Shown here piece after piece: positions 3,978-48,243 of a stretch of DNA of 64,000 nucleotides (position 1 is the first letter of the stretch; each line of letters begins with the position of its first letter). A program made the translations under genes and the position numbers. Under the pieces are notes generated by a model that was not told where the DNA came from, searched no databases, and saw only the letters and a program-made list of their open reading frames with translations. Source of the stretch: Syntrophales bacterium (GTDB taxonomy: Bacteria; Desulfobacterota; Syntrophia; Syntrophales; UBA5619); contig JALNYO010000001.1 in NCBI GenBank assembly GCA_023229765.1, positions 66,569-130,568 on the forward strand, in the 5' to 3' direction.

Positions 3978-5646
3978 GTTGAATATCCGCGATTTCGCCA
4001 TTATCGACGAACTGCAGGTGAGATTCACCGAAGGTCTGACCGTTATTTCCGGGGAGACGGGGGCGGGGAAGTCGATTCTTATCGGTGCGGTGGGGCTCCT
4101 TCTGGGGGAGAGGGCGAGCGCCGACATGATCCGTTCCCTGAAGGACGAGGCGGTTGTCGAGGCTCTTTTTGATATTCGCGGGCAAAAGACCCTGCAGGCA
4201 AGGATTAGCGAAATGGGGTTTGGAGAAGCAGACGAGATAATTATTCGTCGGGTGGTTTCCCGTTCCGGAAAGAACCGTGTTTATATCAACGGCCGGATCG
4301 GGGCGCTGTCTTCGCTGGCCGAAATCGGGGAATCGCTGATCAATATCTGCTCTCAGAATGCCCATCAAACGATCCTGCAGACGGATAACCAGATAGATAT
4401 ACTTGATGAATTTGGCAGCCTTTTGCCGCTACGCGAGGAATATCGAAAAATCTACGACTATTATCGCCTGCTGGGAGGCGAATTGCGTCTCCTTGAGGAG
4501 AAACAGGGCAAGCGGGCCGAGCGGGAGGAACTGCTGCGCTATCAAATTGAGGAGATCGGCCGCGCCGAGATCCTGGCCGGCGAAGATGCGGCCCTCTCCG
4601 AGGAAAAGAATATCCTCATCAATATTCAGAAGCTTTCGAATCTGTCGCAGTCAGCTTATGAATCACTTTATTCTAAAGAGGAATCAGTGCTTGCCGGGCT
4701 GCACGAGGTAGTTGCCGCGGTTAAGGAAATAAGAAAGATCGATCCTTCCCTGGGATTGTCAGGGCAGGAAATGGATGAATTTTATTACCGGATTGAGGAG
4801 GCGGCCCTGACGCTTCGCGATTACGCCAATCATCTTGCGTTCGATCCACTCCGGCTGGAGGCGATTGAAGAGCGACTGGAGCTTTTGGGGAACTTGAAAA
4901 GGAAATACGGGGGAACCCTCTTGGCTGTTTTGGAAAAATTTGGTGATGCGAAGAAGGAGATAGAAGCGATTTCGACGGTGGAGGATGAGATAACAGTACT
5001 GGCGGGCCGCATCGCTGAGGAAAAGAAACGGTTATGGGCGGCGGCGGCGGAGCTTTCCGCGCAGAGACGACAGGCCGCGTCGGTATTGATGAGTTCAGTC
5101 GAGGATGAGATCAGATCCTTGAGAATGGACAATGCCAGATTTGCGGTTGTTTTTCATGAACGCGAAAAAAGTAACGGTGAGGACGCTCCCCATGAGAAGG
5201 GGAACGATTTCCCGGAATTTTACCTGGCGGCGAATGTCGGCGAAGAGCTGAAACCACTGCGGAATGTGGCATCCGGCGGAGAGCTTTCCCGGATCATGCT
5301 CGCCTTTAAAAAGGTTTTGGCGACGACCGGTTCAGTAGGAACGATCGTTTTCGATGAGGTGGACAGCGGAATCGGCGGGGCGACAGCGGAGATCGTCGGC
5401 AAAAGACTTCAGGAAGTTGCCCGTAGTCATCAGGTCATCTGTATAACGCATCTCCCCCAGATTGCCTGCCGCGGGGAGCGTCATTATCTGGCAGCCAAAC
5501 ATGTTATTGAAAACCGAACGAGTACCAGTGTCTCCATTCTTTCTGATGATGAACGCGTCGAAGAGATAGCCCGAATGTTGGGCGGGGTGGAGTTGACTAA
5601 AAAAACGAGAGAGCACGCCCGGGAGATGCTTTTTACCGCCCGGTAA
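3967..5646 (+). CDS. recN: DNA repair protein RecN
   Basis: MLSELNIRDFAIIDEL...ISGETGAGKSILIGAVGLLLGERA, a long coiled-coil middle and a C-terminal ASGGELSRIMLA...FDEVDSGIGG. The nadK-recN synteny is conserved. Confidence 0.95.
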   Translation: MLSELNIRDFAIIDELQVRFTEGLTVISGETGAGKSILIGAVGLLLGERASADMIRSLKDEAVVEALFDIRGQKTLQARISEMGFGEADEIIIRRVVSRSGKNRVYINGRIGALSSLAEIGESLINICSQNAHQTILQTDNQIDILDEFGSLLPLREEYRKIYDYYRLLGGELRLLEEKQGKRAEREELLRYQIEEIGRAEILAGEDAALSEEKNILINIQKLSNLSQSAYESLYSKEESVLAGLHEVVAAVKEIRKIDPSLGLSGQEMDEFYYRIEEAALTLRDYANHLAFDPLRLEAIEERLELLGNLKRKYGGTLLAVLEKFGDAKKEIEAISTVEDEITVLAGRIAEEKKRLWAAAAELSAQRRQAASVLMSSVEDEIRSLRMDNARFAVVFHEREKSNGEDAPHEKGNDFPEFYLAANVGEELKPLRNVASGGELSRIMLAFKKVLATTGSVGTIVFDEVDSGIGGATAEIVGKRLQEVARSHQVICITHLPQIACRGERHYLAAKHVIENRTSTSVSILSDDERVEEIARMLGGVELTKKTREHAREMLFTAR

Positions 5647-5675
5647 ATTATTGAAAAGATGACAAGGGATGAAAA

Positions 5676-6134
5676 ATGCTTAGAAAAGCGCGCATAGGCG
5701 ACGTAAAGACCATTCACAGGCTGATCAATATCTCCGCCGGCAAGGGGGAGATGCTGCCCCGTTCGCTAATGGACATATACGGAAGCCTGAGGGATTTTTT
5801 TGTCTATTACAACGAAAGAGACGGTGAGATTGTCGGCACCTGCGCAATGAACATAACCTGGGAAAACCTCGCCGAAATTAGATCCCTTAACGTTGCAGAA
5901 GAGCGGAGACGAGAGGGGATTGGACGCAAACTGGTCGAAGCCTGCATATCCGAGGCGGTTACGCTGGAACTCTATCGGATATTCGCGCTTACATACCAGC
6001 GGGAGTTCTTTCTGAAGCTGGGTTTTCAGTATGTAGATCGCGATACCCTGCCGCAAAAGGTATGGTCGGACTGTTTGCGTTGTCCCAAATATCCCGATTT
6101 CTGCGATGAAATATCAATGATATTGGAGCTTTGA
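5676..6134 (+). CDS. GNAT family N-acetyltransferase (short ArgA-like)
   Basis: 152 aa with RREGIGRKLVEAC (acetyl-CoA binding Q/RxxGxG/A motif) and the typical GNAT length. Confidence 0.75.
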   Translation: MLRKARIGDVKTIHRLINISAGKGEMLPRSLMDIYGSLRDFFVYYNERDGEIVGTCAMNITWENLAEIRSLNVAEERRREGIGRKLVEACISEAVTLELYRIFALTYQREFFLKLGFQYVDRDTLPQKVWSDCLRCPKYPDFCDEISMILEL

Positions 6135-6251
6135 CATGTTTGAACGGCTGTATCGAACTGTGCTGCGGCAGCGTTGGGGAGGTAGAAAGGGTCTCTTCAA
6201 AAGGGGAAATCTATTTTTTCCTTGCCGAAATTTCATCGACCTTGCGGTTTG

Positions 6252-6430
6252 GGGCCTGTCCACAAATAACCTGAACATCTTGCATCTCATCTTTGGGCCA
6301 TCTTTGGCTGTGGCTCAATCACAAAATCCTCAACGTAGCGCTGCTACGTCTGCGGTTTTGTTCACTCGCCGCAACCAAATCCAACCCAAATCTGAGCGCA
6401 ATTTTGCCCAGGTTATTTGTGGACAGGCCC
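6252..6430. mobile_element. 179 bp MITE-like element with perfect 22 bp terminal inverted repeats (copy 1)
   Basis: It starts GGGCCTGTCCACAAATAACCTG and ends CAGGTTATTTGTGGACAGGCCC. Its reverse complement matches 9571-9749 with 4 mismatches by manual alignment. There is an internal 7 bp hairpin, ACGTAGC-gct-GCTACGT. Confidence 0.8.
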
Positions 6431-6756
6431 TTATTGACTAAGTTGCAGGGAGATATTTGGCGCAACCGACGAAATATTTATTAAAAAATTCATTTTTTTC
6501 TTGATTCCTGTATCTCTTTGTGTTAGCAGGCAGGCAAACTATCAGCATTCTTTCGTTCCTTTTTTTATTGAGATAATAAGAGTTTGAAATTTGGGCTTGT
6601 TACAGCACAGCATTTGAAACGTTTCCCTGCTTATTTTAGCAGGCAAGGATGGTTCAGGGCGTTAGTCTTACAAGCGCTTCGCGGCAGTTATTAACCCACC
6701 AGAGGGGTGGTGACATTGTAATCCATCAAACCATTATTGAAAGGGGGAAAACAGGG

Positions 6757-7029
6757 ATGACAAAAGCGGAATTGATTGCGGTAATAGCGGAAGAGGCTGA
6801 AATCACCAAAGCTGCGGCGGCAAAGGCTCTTGAGGCCTACGTGGGAACGGTAGCAAAGGAACTCAAGAAAAACGGCAAGATCGGACTGGTCGGATTTGGC
6901 GCTTTTTCGGTTGTCAAGAGGAAGGCGCGCGAAGGCAGAAACCCGCAGACCGGCAAGAAGATCAAGATCCCGGCCAAGAAGGTGGTTAAGTTCAAGGTTG
7001 GCAAGGATCTGGCCAGCAAAGTAAAGTAG
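6757..7029 (+). CDS. hup: DNA-binding protein HU
   Basis: MTKAELIAVIAEE...GFGAFSVVKRKAREGRNPQTGKKIKIPA. ATG 6757 is preceded by AAGGGGGA. The track ORF start at 6649 is an upstream extension. Confidence 0.93.
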   Translation: MTKAELIAVIAEEAEITKAAAAKALEAYVGTVAKELKKNGKIGLVGFGAFSVVKRKAREGRNPQTGKKIKIPAKKVVKFKVGKDLASKVK

Positions 7030-7056
7030 TTTTCGTAACTAAAAAAAATTAAAAGA

Positions 7057-7090
7057 GGCTCCCATCGCGGCAAGGGGGCCTTTTTTATTT
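7057..7090 (+). terminator. Rho-independent terminator after hup
   Basis: GGCTCCC-10 nt loop-GGGGGCC (7 bp including one G-U) followed by TTTTTTATTT. It is followed at once by a second perfect 10 bp hairpin, GGGGACAGAT-ttgca-ATCTGTCCCC (7091-7115). Confidence 0.6.
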
Positions 7091-7120
7091 GGGGACAGAT
7101 TTGCAATCTGTCCCCATTCA

Positions 7121-7150
7121 TTGACACGACCGGACATTTCTGCTATGAAC
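7121..7150 (+). promoter_or_regulatory. Candidate sigma70 promoter for trpS
   Basis: TTGACA (7121-7126), an 18 nt spacer, then TATGAA (7145-7150). Confidence 0.3.
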
Positions 7151-7241
7151 CCCACGGTTTTTAATCATTTTGATAGTATTTCCCCAGTGTTCATCGGCGA
7201 TTATCAGCGAAAGGGAAACAGCTAACACAAAGGAGGTTTTT

Positions 7242-8243
7242 TTGTCTCGGAAAAGAATATTGAGCGGCATGCGGCCTACAGGGAAACTTCATCTCGGCAA
7301 TCTTCACGGGGCGCTTGCTAACTGGGTAAATTTGCAGAATCATGGCGATTACGAATGTTTTTATTTTGTTGCCGATTGGCACGCGCTTACCAGCGACTAC
7401 GCGACGACCGAAAATATAAGGGCCAATACAATTGATATGGTTATCGATTGGCTGGCCGCCGGCCTTGACCCGCGCCTAAGCACGCTGTTCATCCAGTCCT
7501 CGGTCAAGGAACATGCGGAACTCTTCCTCCTTTTATCCATGATCACCCCGCTGGCCTGGTTAGAGAGGAATCCCACCTACAAGGAGGTCAAGGAAGAGCT
7601 TGCCCAAAAGGATCTTTCGACATTCGGCTTTCTTGGATACCCGGTCCTGCAGGCAGCGGATATCATCATGTACAAGGCTTTCGGCGTTCCGGTCGGCATC
7701 GATCAGCTTCCCCACGTCGAGCTGACCCGCGAGATCGCCCGCCGTTTTAACTTTCTCTATGGCGAGATATTCCCGATTCCGGAGCCGCTCATGGCAGAGG
7801 TGCCGAAGCTTTTGGGTACGGACGGGCGAAAGATGAGCAAGTCTTACGACAACTCGATATTCATGAGTGACAAGGGCGCGGAGCTGAAAAAGAAGGTTGC
7901 GTCCATGTTCACCGATCCGCAGCGGCAGCGCAAAAGCGATCCCGGGCGCCCTGAACTCTGCAATGTTTATACCTTGCACGGGTTATATTCAGCGCCAGCA
8001 GAGGTGCTGGAGATAGCTGCCGCCTGCCGAAGTGCCGCCATTGGCTGCATCGAATGCAAAAGGCGGCTGGCTGAGGCTATCGCCGATGGCATGGGGCCCA
8101 TTCACGAAAGACGGGAACACTATCTTGCCCACCCCCAAGAGGTGCGGGAAATTATTGAGGACGGCAACATTCGGGCAGGTTGCATCGCCGCTTCGACCTT
8201 GGCCGAGGTGCGCGAAGCCATGAAGATAAAACATGAGTTATGA
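7242..8243 (+). CDS. trpS: Tryptophan--tRNA ligase
   Basis: ILSGMRPTGKLHLGNLHGAL (HIGH-type) and KMSKS motifs. TTG at 7242 is in frame and lies 7 nt after AAGGAGG. The track start at 7170 lacks an RBS. Confidence 0.93.
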   Translation: MSRKRILSGMRPTGKLHLGNLHGALANWVNLQNHGDYECFYFVADWHALTSDYATTENIRANTIDMVIDWLAAGLDPRLSTLFIQSSVKEHAELFLLLSMITPLAWLERNPTYKEVKEELAQKDLSTFGFLGYPVLQAADIIMYKAFGVPVGIDQLPHVELTREIARRFNFLYGEIFPIPEPLMAEVPKLLGTDGRKMSKSYDNSIFMSDKGAELKKKVASMFTDPQRQRKSDPGRPELCNVYTLHGLYSAPAEVLEIAAACRSAAIGCIECKRRLAEAIADGMGPIHERREHYLAHPQEVREIIEDGNIRAGCIAASTLAEVREAMKIKHEL

Positions 8244-9000
8244 GATCAAACTCGATGTCTTTGAAGGTCCGCTCGATCTTTTGCTTTATTTGATCCGGAA
8301 GAACGAGATTGACATCTACAATATCCCGGTAGCCCTCATTACCAGTCAGTATCTCGGATATCTTGGCGAAATGCGTTCCCTGAATCTCGATCTGGCCGGA
8401 GAATATCTGGTAATGGCGGCGACGCTTGCCCATATCAAATCACGGATGCTGCTGCCTGTGACAGATGAGGGCGGCGATGAGGAGGAAGGGGGGGAGGACC
8501 CCCGCGCGGAACTGGTCAAACAGCTTCTGGAGTATCAGGTTTACAAGGAAGCTGCCGGGCTTCTTTCCGCCCGGCCTCTTCTCGAAAGGGATGTGTTTAA
8601 ACTGGGCGCTTATCCGGAGATGCTTCCCGCTCCGGAAAAAATGGAGATGGGCGTGCTGGAGGTCGATCTTTTTGAACTTGTGGAGGCTTTCCGCCGGATT
8701 GTTGCCGGTCTCGAAGTCGGGGAAGGGCTCGAGTTCAGCACCGAAAAACTTTCTCTGGCCGAGCGGATCAACGAAATTATGGAGATTCTGGCTAGGGAGG
8801 GGCAGATTTCCTTTTCTGAACTGGTCATAGACAAAACCCATAGAAAAATGGTAGTTTATACATTCCTTGCCATTCTGGAGCTTATAAAATTACGGATGGC
8901 AAAGGTGCGCCAGGCAGCGCCGTTTGGCGAGATAAGGCTTTTTCTGGCTGTCAAAGAGGAACTGGAAGCACCGAAGATGTTGGAAAATGCCGAGGTGTGA
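8233..9000 (+). CDS. scpA: Segregation and condensation protein A
   Basis: YEIKLDVFEGPLDLLLYLIRKNEIDIYNIPVALITSQYL is the canonical ScpA N-terminus. Confidence 0.93.
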   Translation: MSYEIKLDVFEGPLDLLLYLIRKNEIDIYNIPVALITSQYLGYLGEMRSLNLDLAGEYLVMAATLAHIKSRMLLPVTDEGGDEEEGGEDPRAELVKQLLEYQVYKEAAGLLSARPLLERDVFKLGAYPEMLPAPEKMEMGVLEVDLFELVEAFRRIVAGLEVGEGLEFSTEKLSLAERINEIMEILAREGQISFSELVIDKTHRKMVVYTFLAILELIKLRMAKVRQAAPFGEIRLFLAVKEELEAPKMLENAEV

Positions 9001-9539
9001 TGGAAGAGAAAATCGCTATCCTGGAGGCGTTGATTTTTGCCTCGGAAACACCCCTTGCCGTCGAGAGGGTCGTCGAGATTTTCCCCGCTCTCAAGAAGCC
9101 TGAAATACTCAGTCTTTTTCAGGAACTGGCGGGGGAATATGAGAGGCGGGAAGGGGGCATCTCGCTTCAGGAGGTGGCAGGGGGTTTTCGTTTTCAGACA
9201 AGAATAGAAATGGCGCCCTGGGTCGGTAAATTGAAGGTGGTTCGTCCCACTTCCCTTTCTCCTTCCGCTCTGGAGACCCTGGCGATTATCGCCTATCGGC
9301 AGCCGGTTATGAAAGTGGAAATAGACCGGATCAGGGGCGTTGATACGGGCGGTGCACTGAAGGGGCTTTTAGAAAAAAAACTGGCAAGGATAGTAGGGAG
9401 AAAGGACGTTCCCGGAAAACCAATTATTTACGGAACATCGAAGAAATTCCTTGAGGTATTCAATTTGAAGGACCTTGCCGAATTGCCGACGCTTCGGGAA
9501 ATGAAGGATTTTCGCCCTGCCGGGGAAACCGAAGGTTAG
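9000..9539 (+). CDS. scpB: Segregation and condensation protein B
   Basis: ILEALIFASETPL...LAIIAYRQPV...IRGVD motifs. ATG 9000 overlaps the scpA TGA (TGATG). Confidence 0.92.
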   Translation: MEEKIAILEALIFASETPLAVERVVEIFPALKKPEILSLFQELAGEYERREGGISLQEVAGGFRFQTRIEMAPWVGKLKVVRPTSLSPSALETLAIIAYRQPVMKVEIDRIRGVDTGGALKGLLEKKLARIVGRKDVPGKPIIYGTSKKFLEVFNLKDLAELPTLREMKDFRPAGETEG

Positions 9540-9570
9540 GGGTAAAAGCTCAGGCGGAAGACGGAACAAA

Positions 9571-9749
9571 GGGCCTGTCCACAAATAACCTGGGCAAGAT
9601 TGCGCTCAGATTTGGGTTGGATTTGGTTGTGGCGATTGAACAAAACCGCAGACGTAGCAGCGCTACGTTGAGGATTTTGTAATTGAGCCACAGCCAAAGA
9701 TGGCCCAAAGATGAGATGCAAGATGTTCAGGTTATTTGTGGACAGGCCC
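9571..9749. mobile_element. 179 bp MITE-like element (copy 2, inverted relative to copy 1)
   Basis: It has the same 22 bp TIRs and matches the reverse complement of 6252-6430 with 4 mismatches. It is inserted between the scpB stop and the rluB start. Confidence 0.8.
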
Positions 9750-9790
9750 AAAGGTAGCGGTAGCGGGTTTTTGAGGGAAGGGTGTTCATC

Positions 9791-10537
9791 ATGGAAGAAC
9801 GATTGCAGAAGATTCTTGCCGGCGCCGGTGTCTCATCGCGACGCGCGGCGGAAAGAATGATCTCCGATGGCAGAATATCGGTAAACGGCGTAGTTGTACG
9901 CCAACAGGGAACGAAGGCTGATGCCGATCGTGATGAAATACGGGTGGACGGCAAGCTTATCTCCTGCGAAACGGAAAAGGTGTATATCGTTCTGAATAAA
10001 CCGAGCGGGTATGTCACCACCCTGAGCGATCCGGAGGGAAGGCCGATCGTGACGGATCTGCTCAGTGGGGTTGCCGAGCGGGTGTTCCCGGTGGGACGTC
10101 TCGACTATGACTCAGAGGGGCTGCTCCTTTTGACCAATGATGGCGATTTTGCCCAGTGCCTTCAGCATCCCCGCTTCAAGGTTCCCAAAACCTACCGCGT
10201 CAAGATCGAAGGGCGTCTGAACAGGCTTGAACTGCAAAGCCTGGAAAAGGGAATGGAGCTTCCCGATGGGAAGTTTGCCCCGTCATCAGTCATTATGGAA
10301 AAGGTCAATCCGAAAAGCACCTGGCTGCTGCTTACCATCCATGATGGAAGAAATCGTGTAATAAGACGGGCCTTTGATTCGCTTGGCCATTCCGTTACCC
10401 GTCTGATCCGCGTCTCTTTTGGCGATCTTACCCTCGATTCTCTCGGCGAAGGCGAGTGGCGAGCCCTGCGTCATGGAGAAGTAGGACAGTTGATGGCCCA
10501 GTCCCAAGCGCAAAAAAACAGCAAAAAATTAGCTTGA
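9791..10537 (+). CDS. rluB: 23S rRNA pseudouridine synthase RluB family
   Basis: S4 domain (RLQKILAGAGVSSRRAAERMISDGRISVNG) and catalytic VGRLDYDSEGLLLLTNDG. Confidence 0.9.
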   Translation: MEERLQKILAGAGVSSRRAAERMISDGRISVNGVVVRQQGTKADADRDEIRVDGKLISCETEKVYIVLNKPSGYVTTLSDPEGRPIVTDLLSGVAERVFPVGRLDYDSEGLLLLTNDGDFAQCLQHPRFKVPKTYRVKIEGRLNRLELQSLEKGMELPDGKFAPSSVIMEKVNPKSTWLLLTIHDGRNRVIRRAFDSLGHSVTRLIRVSFGDLTLDSLGEGEWRALRHGEVGQLMAQSQAQKNSKKLA

Positions 10538-47265: not shown

Positions 47266-48108
47266 GTGGCGAGTATTTCAATGAAGTTGTTGCTTGAGGC
47301 GGGGGTTCATTTCGGTCATCAGACCAACAAATGGAATCCCAAAATGAAAACGTACATTTTCGGCGCGAGAAACGGGATCTACATCATTGATCTGCAGCAG
47401 ACGGTCGGGCTTTTTCAGACGGCGTACAAGTTTGTTGTGGAGACTGTTGCCGAAGGTGGGGAGCTGCTCTTTGTCGGCACCAAAAAGCAGGCGCAGGAAT
47501 CGATCCAGGATGAAGCCGCGAGGTGCGAGATGCCATGCGTCAATCAGCGCTGGCTGGGCGGCATGCTGACCAATTTTGTAACGATCAAAAAGAGCATTGA
47601 TCGTTTGAACGAACTTGATCAGATGTTCGAGGATGACAGCATCAAGGCTTTTCCAAAAAAGGAAATCCTCGGCATGCAAAAGGACAGGGATAAGCTGATC
47701 AAGGTTTTAGGCGGGATCAGGAAGCTGAAAAAATTGCCCAAATGCCTGTTTATTGTTGATCCCAAGCGGGAGGATATCGCCGTGACCGAGGCGAGAAAAC
47801 TGAAGATACCGATTGTGGCGATGGTCGATACCAACTGCGATCCTGATCTGATCGATTACATAATCCCCGGGAACGACGATGCGATAAGGGCGATTAAACT
47901 GTTTTCCGCCAAGATGGCCGATGCCGTCATAGAAGGCAAAAAACGTTTTGAGGAGCGGCTGCAGGCCCAAAGCGACAAGGAAAGGGTCGCGGCGGATGGA
48001 CCTATAGTCACTTACATAAAAGATGAGAACGATGTTCCTGAAACAGTGGAAAGCAAGGGTTTGGAGGCGCAGGAAAAGGGCGCCGGGGACCTGGAAGCCG
48101 CCCGGTAA
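47266..48108 (+). CDS. rpsB: 30S ribosomal protein S2
   Basis: [38 protein letters not shown]. Confidence 0.96.
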
Positions 48109-48227
48109 ATAGTTAACGGTTGACGGTTAACAGTTGACGGTTAACCGCCGGCAAATATTGAGGTCTTCAATTCAATGCAAACCGGAACCCGGAAACCGTC
48201 AACCGGAAACCGTAAACCGTCAACCGT
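48108..48227. repeat. Inverted heptamer arrays (NACGGTT x5, ~35 nt spacer, NAACCGN x~7) in the rpsB-tsf spacer
   Basis: The left arm 48108-48142 reads AATAGTT AACGGTT GACGGTT AACAGTT GACGGTT. The right arm 48178-48227 reads ...GAAACCG TCAACCG GAAACCG TAAACCG TCAACCGT. This is the same family as 1209-1299 and 1668-1821. Confidence 0.85.
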
Positions 48228-48243
48228 AAGCAAGGAGGATAAA

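Follow-up and report, generated by a model that had tools for sequence, protein, structure and literature searches.

What are the two copies of a 179-bp repeat that face each other across the genes hup, trpS, scpA and scpB in a 64,000-nucleotide stretch of the genome of an uncultured Syntrophales bacterium (contig JALNYO010000001.1, positions 66,569 to 130,568; the whole stretch is hereafter called the window)? Very probably, a miniature inverted-repeat transposable element (MITE) has inserted here twice, independently, and its 22-nt ends would derive from a clade of 1,325-bp insertion sequences (ISs) of the ISAzo13 family. The element shows the traits by which MITEs are recognised: it is shorter than about 600 bp and bounded by terminal inverted repeats (TIRs), it carries no gene, it is flanked by a target-site duplication when compared with an empty site, it occurs as dispersed near-identical copies, and its TIRs are shared with ISs that bear a transposase. 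An origin from the ISAzo13 family is indicated by the 3-bp length of the duplication and by the ISAzo13 transposase (PF07592/NF033519) encoded in elements with these ends.

A repeat search of the whole window recovers one outstanding inverted pair, 6249-6432 and 9569-9752, which is 97% complementary over 184 nt with a spacing of 3136 nt, and the 22-mer GGGCCTGTCCACAAATAACCTG occurs in the window exactly four times, at both ends of each copy, where none would be expected by chance. An earlier note on this DNA had described an inverted pair of 179-bp copies about 3.1 kb apart, with perfect 22-bp TIRs and four differences between them, and the repeat search together with the 22-mer count recovers it in these terms. 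The features of the element are as follows.

6249..6251, no strand: left flank of copy 1, TTG (TTT in the near-identical contig L006), an imperfect match to the right flank
6252..6430, plus strand: MITE copy 1, 179 bp, in the 623-nt spacer between a GNAT gene and hup; the plus strand is here the less stable RNA strand (-91 kcal/mol)
6252..6273, plus strand: left TIR of copy 1, GGGCCTGTCCACAAATAACCTG, exact 22-mer match
6409..6430, minus strand: right TIR of copy 1, exact 22-mer match
6431..6433, no strand: right flank of copy 1, TTA
9568..9570, no strand: left target-site duplication of copy 2, AAA, from the empty-site comparison
9571..9749, minus strand: MITE copy 2, 179 bp, inverted relative to copy 1, in the scpB-rluB spacer
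9571..9592, plus strand: TIR of copy 2, exact 22-mer match
9728..9749, minus strand: TIR of copy 2, exact 22-mer match
9750..9752, no strand: right target-site duplication of copy 2, AAA, from the empty-site comparison

Read in the same orientation, the two copies differ at four positions over 179 bp, and in each of them the 22-nt TIRs are perfect. Beyond its ends, the entire unit forms an imperfect palindrome, with a G+C content of 50% as against 52% for the window. With 179 bp the unit is too small for a transposase, and the two open reading frames (ORFs) that cross it, 6136-6441(+) and 9536-9751(-), find no match in Pfam, differ from each other in their flanking parts and are left uncalled as genes in L003, a contig of a near-identical metagenome-assembled genome (MAG). 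The element thus lacks coding capacity, as the earlier note had proposed, and both ORFs can be regarded as spurious in annotation. Searches of the PLSDB plasmids and INPHARED phages with the element (blastn), and of the IMG/VR viral collection with its TIR, gave no match.

The surroundings of the two copies allow their insertion to be read directly. The gene order is NAD kinase, recN, a GNAT acetyltransferase, copy 1, HU, trpS, scpA, scpB, copy 2, rluB and a second HU/IHF-like gene, so that the gene calls agree with the hup-trpS-scpA-scpB bracket as first noticed, and both copies are intergenic.

6431..9570, plus strand: bracketed 3.1-kb segment hup-trpS-scpA-scpB, outside the element and syntenic with the MITE-free relative L004
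6757-7029: hup (HU)
7242-8243: trpS
8233-9000: scpA
9000-9539: scpB
9782 or 9791 to 10537: rluB, downstream of copy 2

Copy 2 begins 31 nt past the stop of scpB and ends 33-42 nt ahead of the start of rluB. Since the scpB-rluB spacer measures only 76 nt in MITE-free relatives, copy 2 does split a junction that is normally contiguous, as the earlier note had claimed. Three such relatives (L004, L007 and L009), about 89-91% identical to the window and collinear with it, lack exactly positions 9573-9748 by megablast, and their empty site reads GGAACAAAGGTAGC, with no 179 bp and a single AAA. In a multiple alignment the same site appears as GGAACAAAGGTAGCGG in the three relatives, against GGAACAAA[179 bp]AAAGGTAGCGG in the window. 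Copy 2 is therefore an insertion of 179 bp, accompanied by a 3-bp AAA duplication, into a 76-nt spacer, and the AAA flanks that were at first only a possible target-site duplication are confirmed as such by a clean empty site in relatives of about 90% identity. Copy 1, which lies upstream of a hup-leader block conserved with L004, is also absent from that contig.

Proteins of the window are identical to MCK9362035-MCK9362042 of a Syntrophales MAG. Of the closer relatives, two carry both insertions. L003, a contig of a second Syntrophales MAG (GCA_054635285.1), is 99.0% identical to the window over 20 kb; L006, an ENA contig, 99.7%; and L026, a JGI metagenome contig, 99.6%. Both copies occupy the same places in L003 and L006, and L026 starts inside copy 1 and stops before copy 2. 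In L003, copy 2 (positions 8906-9084 of that contig) differs from that of the window at 5 of 179 positions (2.8%), some of them next to the right end. The sequence around it agrees at 99.0% over 20 kb, which may point to a rate of change higher in the element than in its surroundings, or to conversion.

The geometry of inverted elements flanking a 3.1-kb segment is also that of a composite transposon, and the pair together with hup-trpS-scpA-scpB could in principle be a single event that imported four genes. Nevertheless, gene content, order and location are unchanged in the MITE-free L004, the outer flanks are unlike (TTG and AAA), copy 2 has an AAA/AAA duplication of its own, and the cargo would consist of core housekeeping genes. 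The synteny with L004 and the separate duplication of copy 2 thus exclude a composite origin for practical purposes, and it deserves hardly any credence. For two independent MITE insertions there still follows a possible consequence for the genome. Counted from the four differences, the copies share identical runs of up to 68 bases, and 68 identical bases are sufficient for RecA-dependent recombination. Judged from the arrangement of the repeats, the pair would be a potential substrate for inverting 6431-9570 with its four housekeeping genes. Four independent assemblies of the segment (the window, L003, L006 and L026) are all collinear with the MITE-free L004, and an inversion in the past would not agree with the flanking trinucleotides.

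The same element is present at several other places. Contigs of JGI metagenomes were scanned with a pattern of the ends that allowed slight degeneracy, and the element came up again at unrelated loci (L017, L018, L019, L024, L031/L033, L032 and L025), that is, at least six loci besides the two in the window, in the same Syntrophales population. Six of these contigs (L017, L018, L019, L024, L031 and L032) come from the metagenome Ga0265292, which also holds L026, and L025 from another metagenome. At three loci the flanking proteins cluster at 90% identity or more with proteins of the window's Syntrophales MAGs. The copies, more numerous than the two of the earlier note, are 95-99% identical to one another, and each window copy has two private changes with respect to the family consensus; the high mutual identity and the few private changes fit a recent burst. 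The contigs L005, L008, L026 and L034 begin or end inside the element, as a dispersed repeat of this kind disrupts assembly, which also explains contig breaks in related assemblies.

The flanking trinucleotides of complete copies are TTA/TTA, ATA/ATA, TAA/TAA or AAA/AAA, with the exceptions of L019 and window copy 1. A second clean comparison is offered by a third locus, between genes for a DUF362 protein and BenE, where L031 and L033 read ...GC TAT[MITE]TAT GCAAGG and L035, a relative of about 93% identity, reads ...GC CAC GCAAGG; the occupied reading is …GCTAT[MITE]TATGCAAGG… and the empty one …GCCACGCAAGG…. The DUF362 protein beside the L033 copy has the same sequence as MCK9364664.1, which is encoded in the MAG of the window. 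Two of the further copies lie in particular positions with respect to genes. In L025 (positions 1-60) the end of the MITE adjoins the ribosome-binding site TAAGGAG of gltX (…GGCCC|TAAGGAGACAAAAATG), with 14 nt between the insertion and the start codon that follows it, and with the TAA flank extending into the Shine-Dalgarno sequence. In L032 a peptidase M48/TPR gene (489-2093) runs into the MITE (1985-2163) and its last 36 or so codons are encoded by the element; the contig stops 15 nt past the element, with no native C-terminus for comparison.

These data bear on the possibility that the repeats are resident, non-mobile structures, either a structured regulatory RNA or a protein-binding site conserved in place. 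Such a role would suit their strong predicted fold and their intergenic location beside operon genes, but the same sites are empty in relatives of about 90% identity, cleanly and with 3-bp duplications, copies stand at unrelated loci, and the ends are identical to those of ISs. Rfam has no match for the element region 6200-6480 even at E<=1, and at gathering thresholds it detects no RNA gene, transfer RNA included, in the window (1-64000); this answers the suspicion of a structured RNA that had been voiced together with the MITE-like interpretation. A resident role is very improbable. A state of only two copies, conserved at the same positions in distant relatives, which the earlier note had taken to argue for a regulatory RNA, is contradicted by the other loci and the empty sites, and the MITE-like behaviour it had proposed is supported by them, by the AAA duplication and by an IS with the same ends.

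A parent IS lineage sharing the ends of the MITE, whose existence had been left as a point to check, was found among ISAzo13-family elements with intact transposases. When GTDB representative genomes were scanned with a 20-mer of the element end, two matches appeared. In L001, from a Phycisphaerales MAG, positions 4978-6005 hold a 1,028-bp element with the identical 22-mer at its left end, a copy with two mismatches at the other end and a TTA duplication; its ISAzo13 transposase (Pfam PF07592, 8e-83; NCBIfam NF033519, 5e-114) is decayed, internally deleted and contains stops. The second match, L002 from a Lachnospiraceae genome, has the 20-mer within a coding region and was discarded as a chance match. 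The metagenome scan provided four more elements (L016, L020, L028 and L029) of 1,323-1,326 bp, two of them with intact transposases of 408 aa (L028) and 406 aa (L029). The latter protein is HSU68324.1, named ISAzo13 family transposase, from a Tepidisphaeraceae bacterium, and its clade counts thousands of members in metagenomes. The TIR of the MITE matches the left end of L001 at 22 of 22 positions and the ends of the four longer elements at 21 of 22. Aligned, the IS ends form a repeat of about 30 nt, GGGCCTGTCC[A/G/C]AAAATAACCTGTTCAACTT, of which the MITE has the outer 22 nt alone. Duplications of 3 bp, as seen here, are generated by ISAzo13 as well as by Zator, its relative in eukaryotes (PMC10045372), and the relationship between the two has also been described elsewhere (PMC5718144).

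Single sequences resembling the TIR were also seen. In L013 (1411-1432) and L014 (360-381), GAGCCTGTCCAAAAATAACCTG follows TTA, and in L022 (4242-4263) and L027 (1676-1697), ATGCCTGTCCACAAATAACCTG is followed by its own short complement; none of them has a second end within reach, and either related elements or chance may account for them. L010 and L012/L030 likewise contain single TIR-like matches.

The existence in L001 of an internally deleted IS with these ends brings up the idea that each copy of the repeat might be what remains of a full-length IS after deletion in situ. Against this, the same 135-nt interior, without similarity to the IS, is found at all loci, which implies that the 179-bp unit itself has multiplied; separate deletions at each site are highly improbable as an explanation.

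Several observations do weigh against a family of MITEs derived from ISAzo13 elements. The interior of the MITE is unrelated to that of the ISs, and the likeness is confined to the 22-nt ends. The 64-kb window itself lacks an ISAzo13 transposase gene (tblastn gave noise only), no full-length ISAzo13 partner appears among the Ga0265292 matches of the end-pattern scan, and none of the 120 listed of the more than 8,000 homologues of the L029 enzyme is labelled Syntrophales. The named full-length relatives belong to other phyla (Phycisphaerae and Acidobacteriota), so that the mobilising enzyme in this host is only a candidate and the family could be immobile now; it may be a fossil, or the partner IS may be located beyond the data covered. 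The flanks of two full-length elements are unequal, TTA/TAA in L028 (205-1535) and TAA/TTA in L029 (54-1384), both on short metagenome contigs, and recombination between IS copies or chimeric contigs may be the reason. Copy 1 of the window shows an imperfect duplication, TTG/TTA (TTT/TTA in L006), in line with the initial impression that its flanks were not clearly duplicated, and in L004 the divergence of the GNAT-hup spacer prevents a reconstruction of its empty site. Finally, L019 has unequal flanks, TTA/AAA, at a contig end; compared with the relative L036, its left flank agrees and the 9 nt to the right of the MITE do not, and this right junction is possibly chimeric across copies or recombined.

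Derivation of the ends from ISAzo13 elements suggests a pathway for the spreading of the MITE, which would start with the binding of both 22-nt ends by a DDE transposase of ISAzo13 type acting in trans. The enzyme would then excise or copy the element, and integration would proceed through a 3-nt staggered cut at a trinucleotide composed of A and T only (mostly TWA, here AAA), whose repair would yield the 3-bp duplication. Mobilisation of this kind may still be under way, and the family was very probably amplified recently in one population of Syntrophales (Thermodesulfobacteriota). Both insertions in the window very probably postdate the split from the lineage of about 90% identity and predate the divergence of the strains of about 99% identity.

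A last question is whether the insertions have any effect on the genes around them. The RNA of the plus strand at copy 2 is predicted to fold with -110.5 kcal/mol and that of the opposite strand with -91.1 (z about -14 for both), a difference due to the eight G-U pairs of one strand as against a single one of the other. The more stable, G-U-rich strand is the plus, mRNA-sense strand at copy 2, and in seven of the eight scorable copies, copy 2 included, it is sense to co-directional neighbours; the one-sided p is about 0.04 for each asymmetry, that of strand orientation and that of the G-U pairs, with small numbers in both. If scpB and rluB are co-transcribed, their transcript would hold copy 2 as a near-perfect hairpin of 179 nt, with possible consequences for expression, and the flanking genes need not be affected, both copies being intergenic.

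The orientation bias and the G-U asymmetry give hints of selection on the hairpin in transcripts. The MITE could, in addition to being mobile, have been co-opted as an orientation-dependent RNA hairpin that acts on mRNA processing, stability or attenuation, as in the case of Correia and ERIC, and is kept sense near genes. Besides the difference of folding energy and G-U pairing between strands and the sense orientation of most copies, the frequent location of copies just upstream of gene starts, with that of gltX as an example, is favourable to it. Nevertheless, the counts are small, copy 1 has the opposite orientation, a consensus scan shows no enrichment of promoter-like or terminator-like sites, and a covariation test with nine copies found no double changes, and hence no compensatory ones, among copies that are too similar to each other. 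Co-option is accordingly unlikely, though it stands well above the rivals considered so far. Slightly less probable still is a broader proposal, in which no MITE family of the ISAzo13/Zator lineage would have been described before this one. It would perhaps be retained in a preferred orientation through a very stable G-U-rich hairpin that processes or stabilises neighbouring mRNAs (for instance by uncoupling rluB from scpAB), and its transposase would come from an IS clade known so far from other phyla only.

Bacterial MITEs are well known, and the element is an ordinary kind of bacterial repeat. RUP of Streptococcus pneumoniae, which is related to IS630, and Correia/NEMIS of Neisseria are MITEs derived from DDE insertion sequences. 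As in them, the element measures 100-200 bp, has no coding capacity, has TIRs that correspond to those of an autonomous IS and is bordered by a short A/T-rich target duplication; likewise its dispersed intergenic copies, often inside operons, can form a hairpin over their whole length and vary in presence between close strains. It differs from them in its ends of ISAzo13 lineage, in a duplication of 3 bp instead of the TA of IS630-type elements, and in its host, an uncultured Syntrophales. A promoter, an IHF site and RNase III processing form no part of the likeness observed here. With the ISAzo13-family ISs (PF07592, NF033519; Zator-related) it has in common the outer 22 nt, GGGCCTGTCCA[A/C]AAATAACCTG, and the 3-bp duplication at A/T trinucleotides, whereas it measures 179 bp instead of about 1,325 bp, has no transposase, has an unrelated interior and is devoid of the inner 8 nt, TTCAACTT. 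REP and BIME sequences, which are mobilised by RAYT enzymes, are equally short, palindromic, intergenic and multi-copy. REPs are imperfect palindromes of 20-40 nt with neither long TIRs nor target duplications, in contrast to the 22-nt TIRs, the 3-bp duplication and the DDE-type IS partner found here. In the searchable literature, no description was found of an ISAzo13-derived MITE, nor of a comparable element in syntrophic Deltaproteobacteria-like lineages.

The understanding of MITEs in general is unchanged by this finding, and its interest is more specific. The outer 22 nt of the TIR are likely the recognition sequence of an abundant and little-studied clade of ISAzo13 elements, the clean empty sites support a 3-bp target duplication at A/T trinucleotides for this family, and the insertions can serve as strain markers for an uncultured Syntrophales population.

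The window contains another presence/absence polymorphism, made of other repeats. Between der and rdgC, two inverted arrays of heptamers, CGGTTGN in eight repeats (1234-1292) and TCAACCG in 22 (1667-1821), bracket a gene on the minus strand (1292-1642) for a protein of 116 aa with the PF05635 domain (23S rRNA IVP / Avd-like four-helix-bundle). In L004, the relative of about 90% identity, der and rdgC are almost adjacent and both the gene and the arrays are absent, so that the unit of about 640 bp is itself polymorphic in presence, and it may represent a mobile cassette. The same heptamers form another inverted pair (48103-48145 and 48179-48229) in the rpsB-tsf spacer, with only about 35 nt between the arrays.

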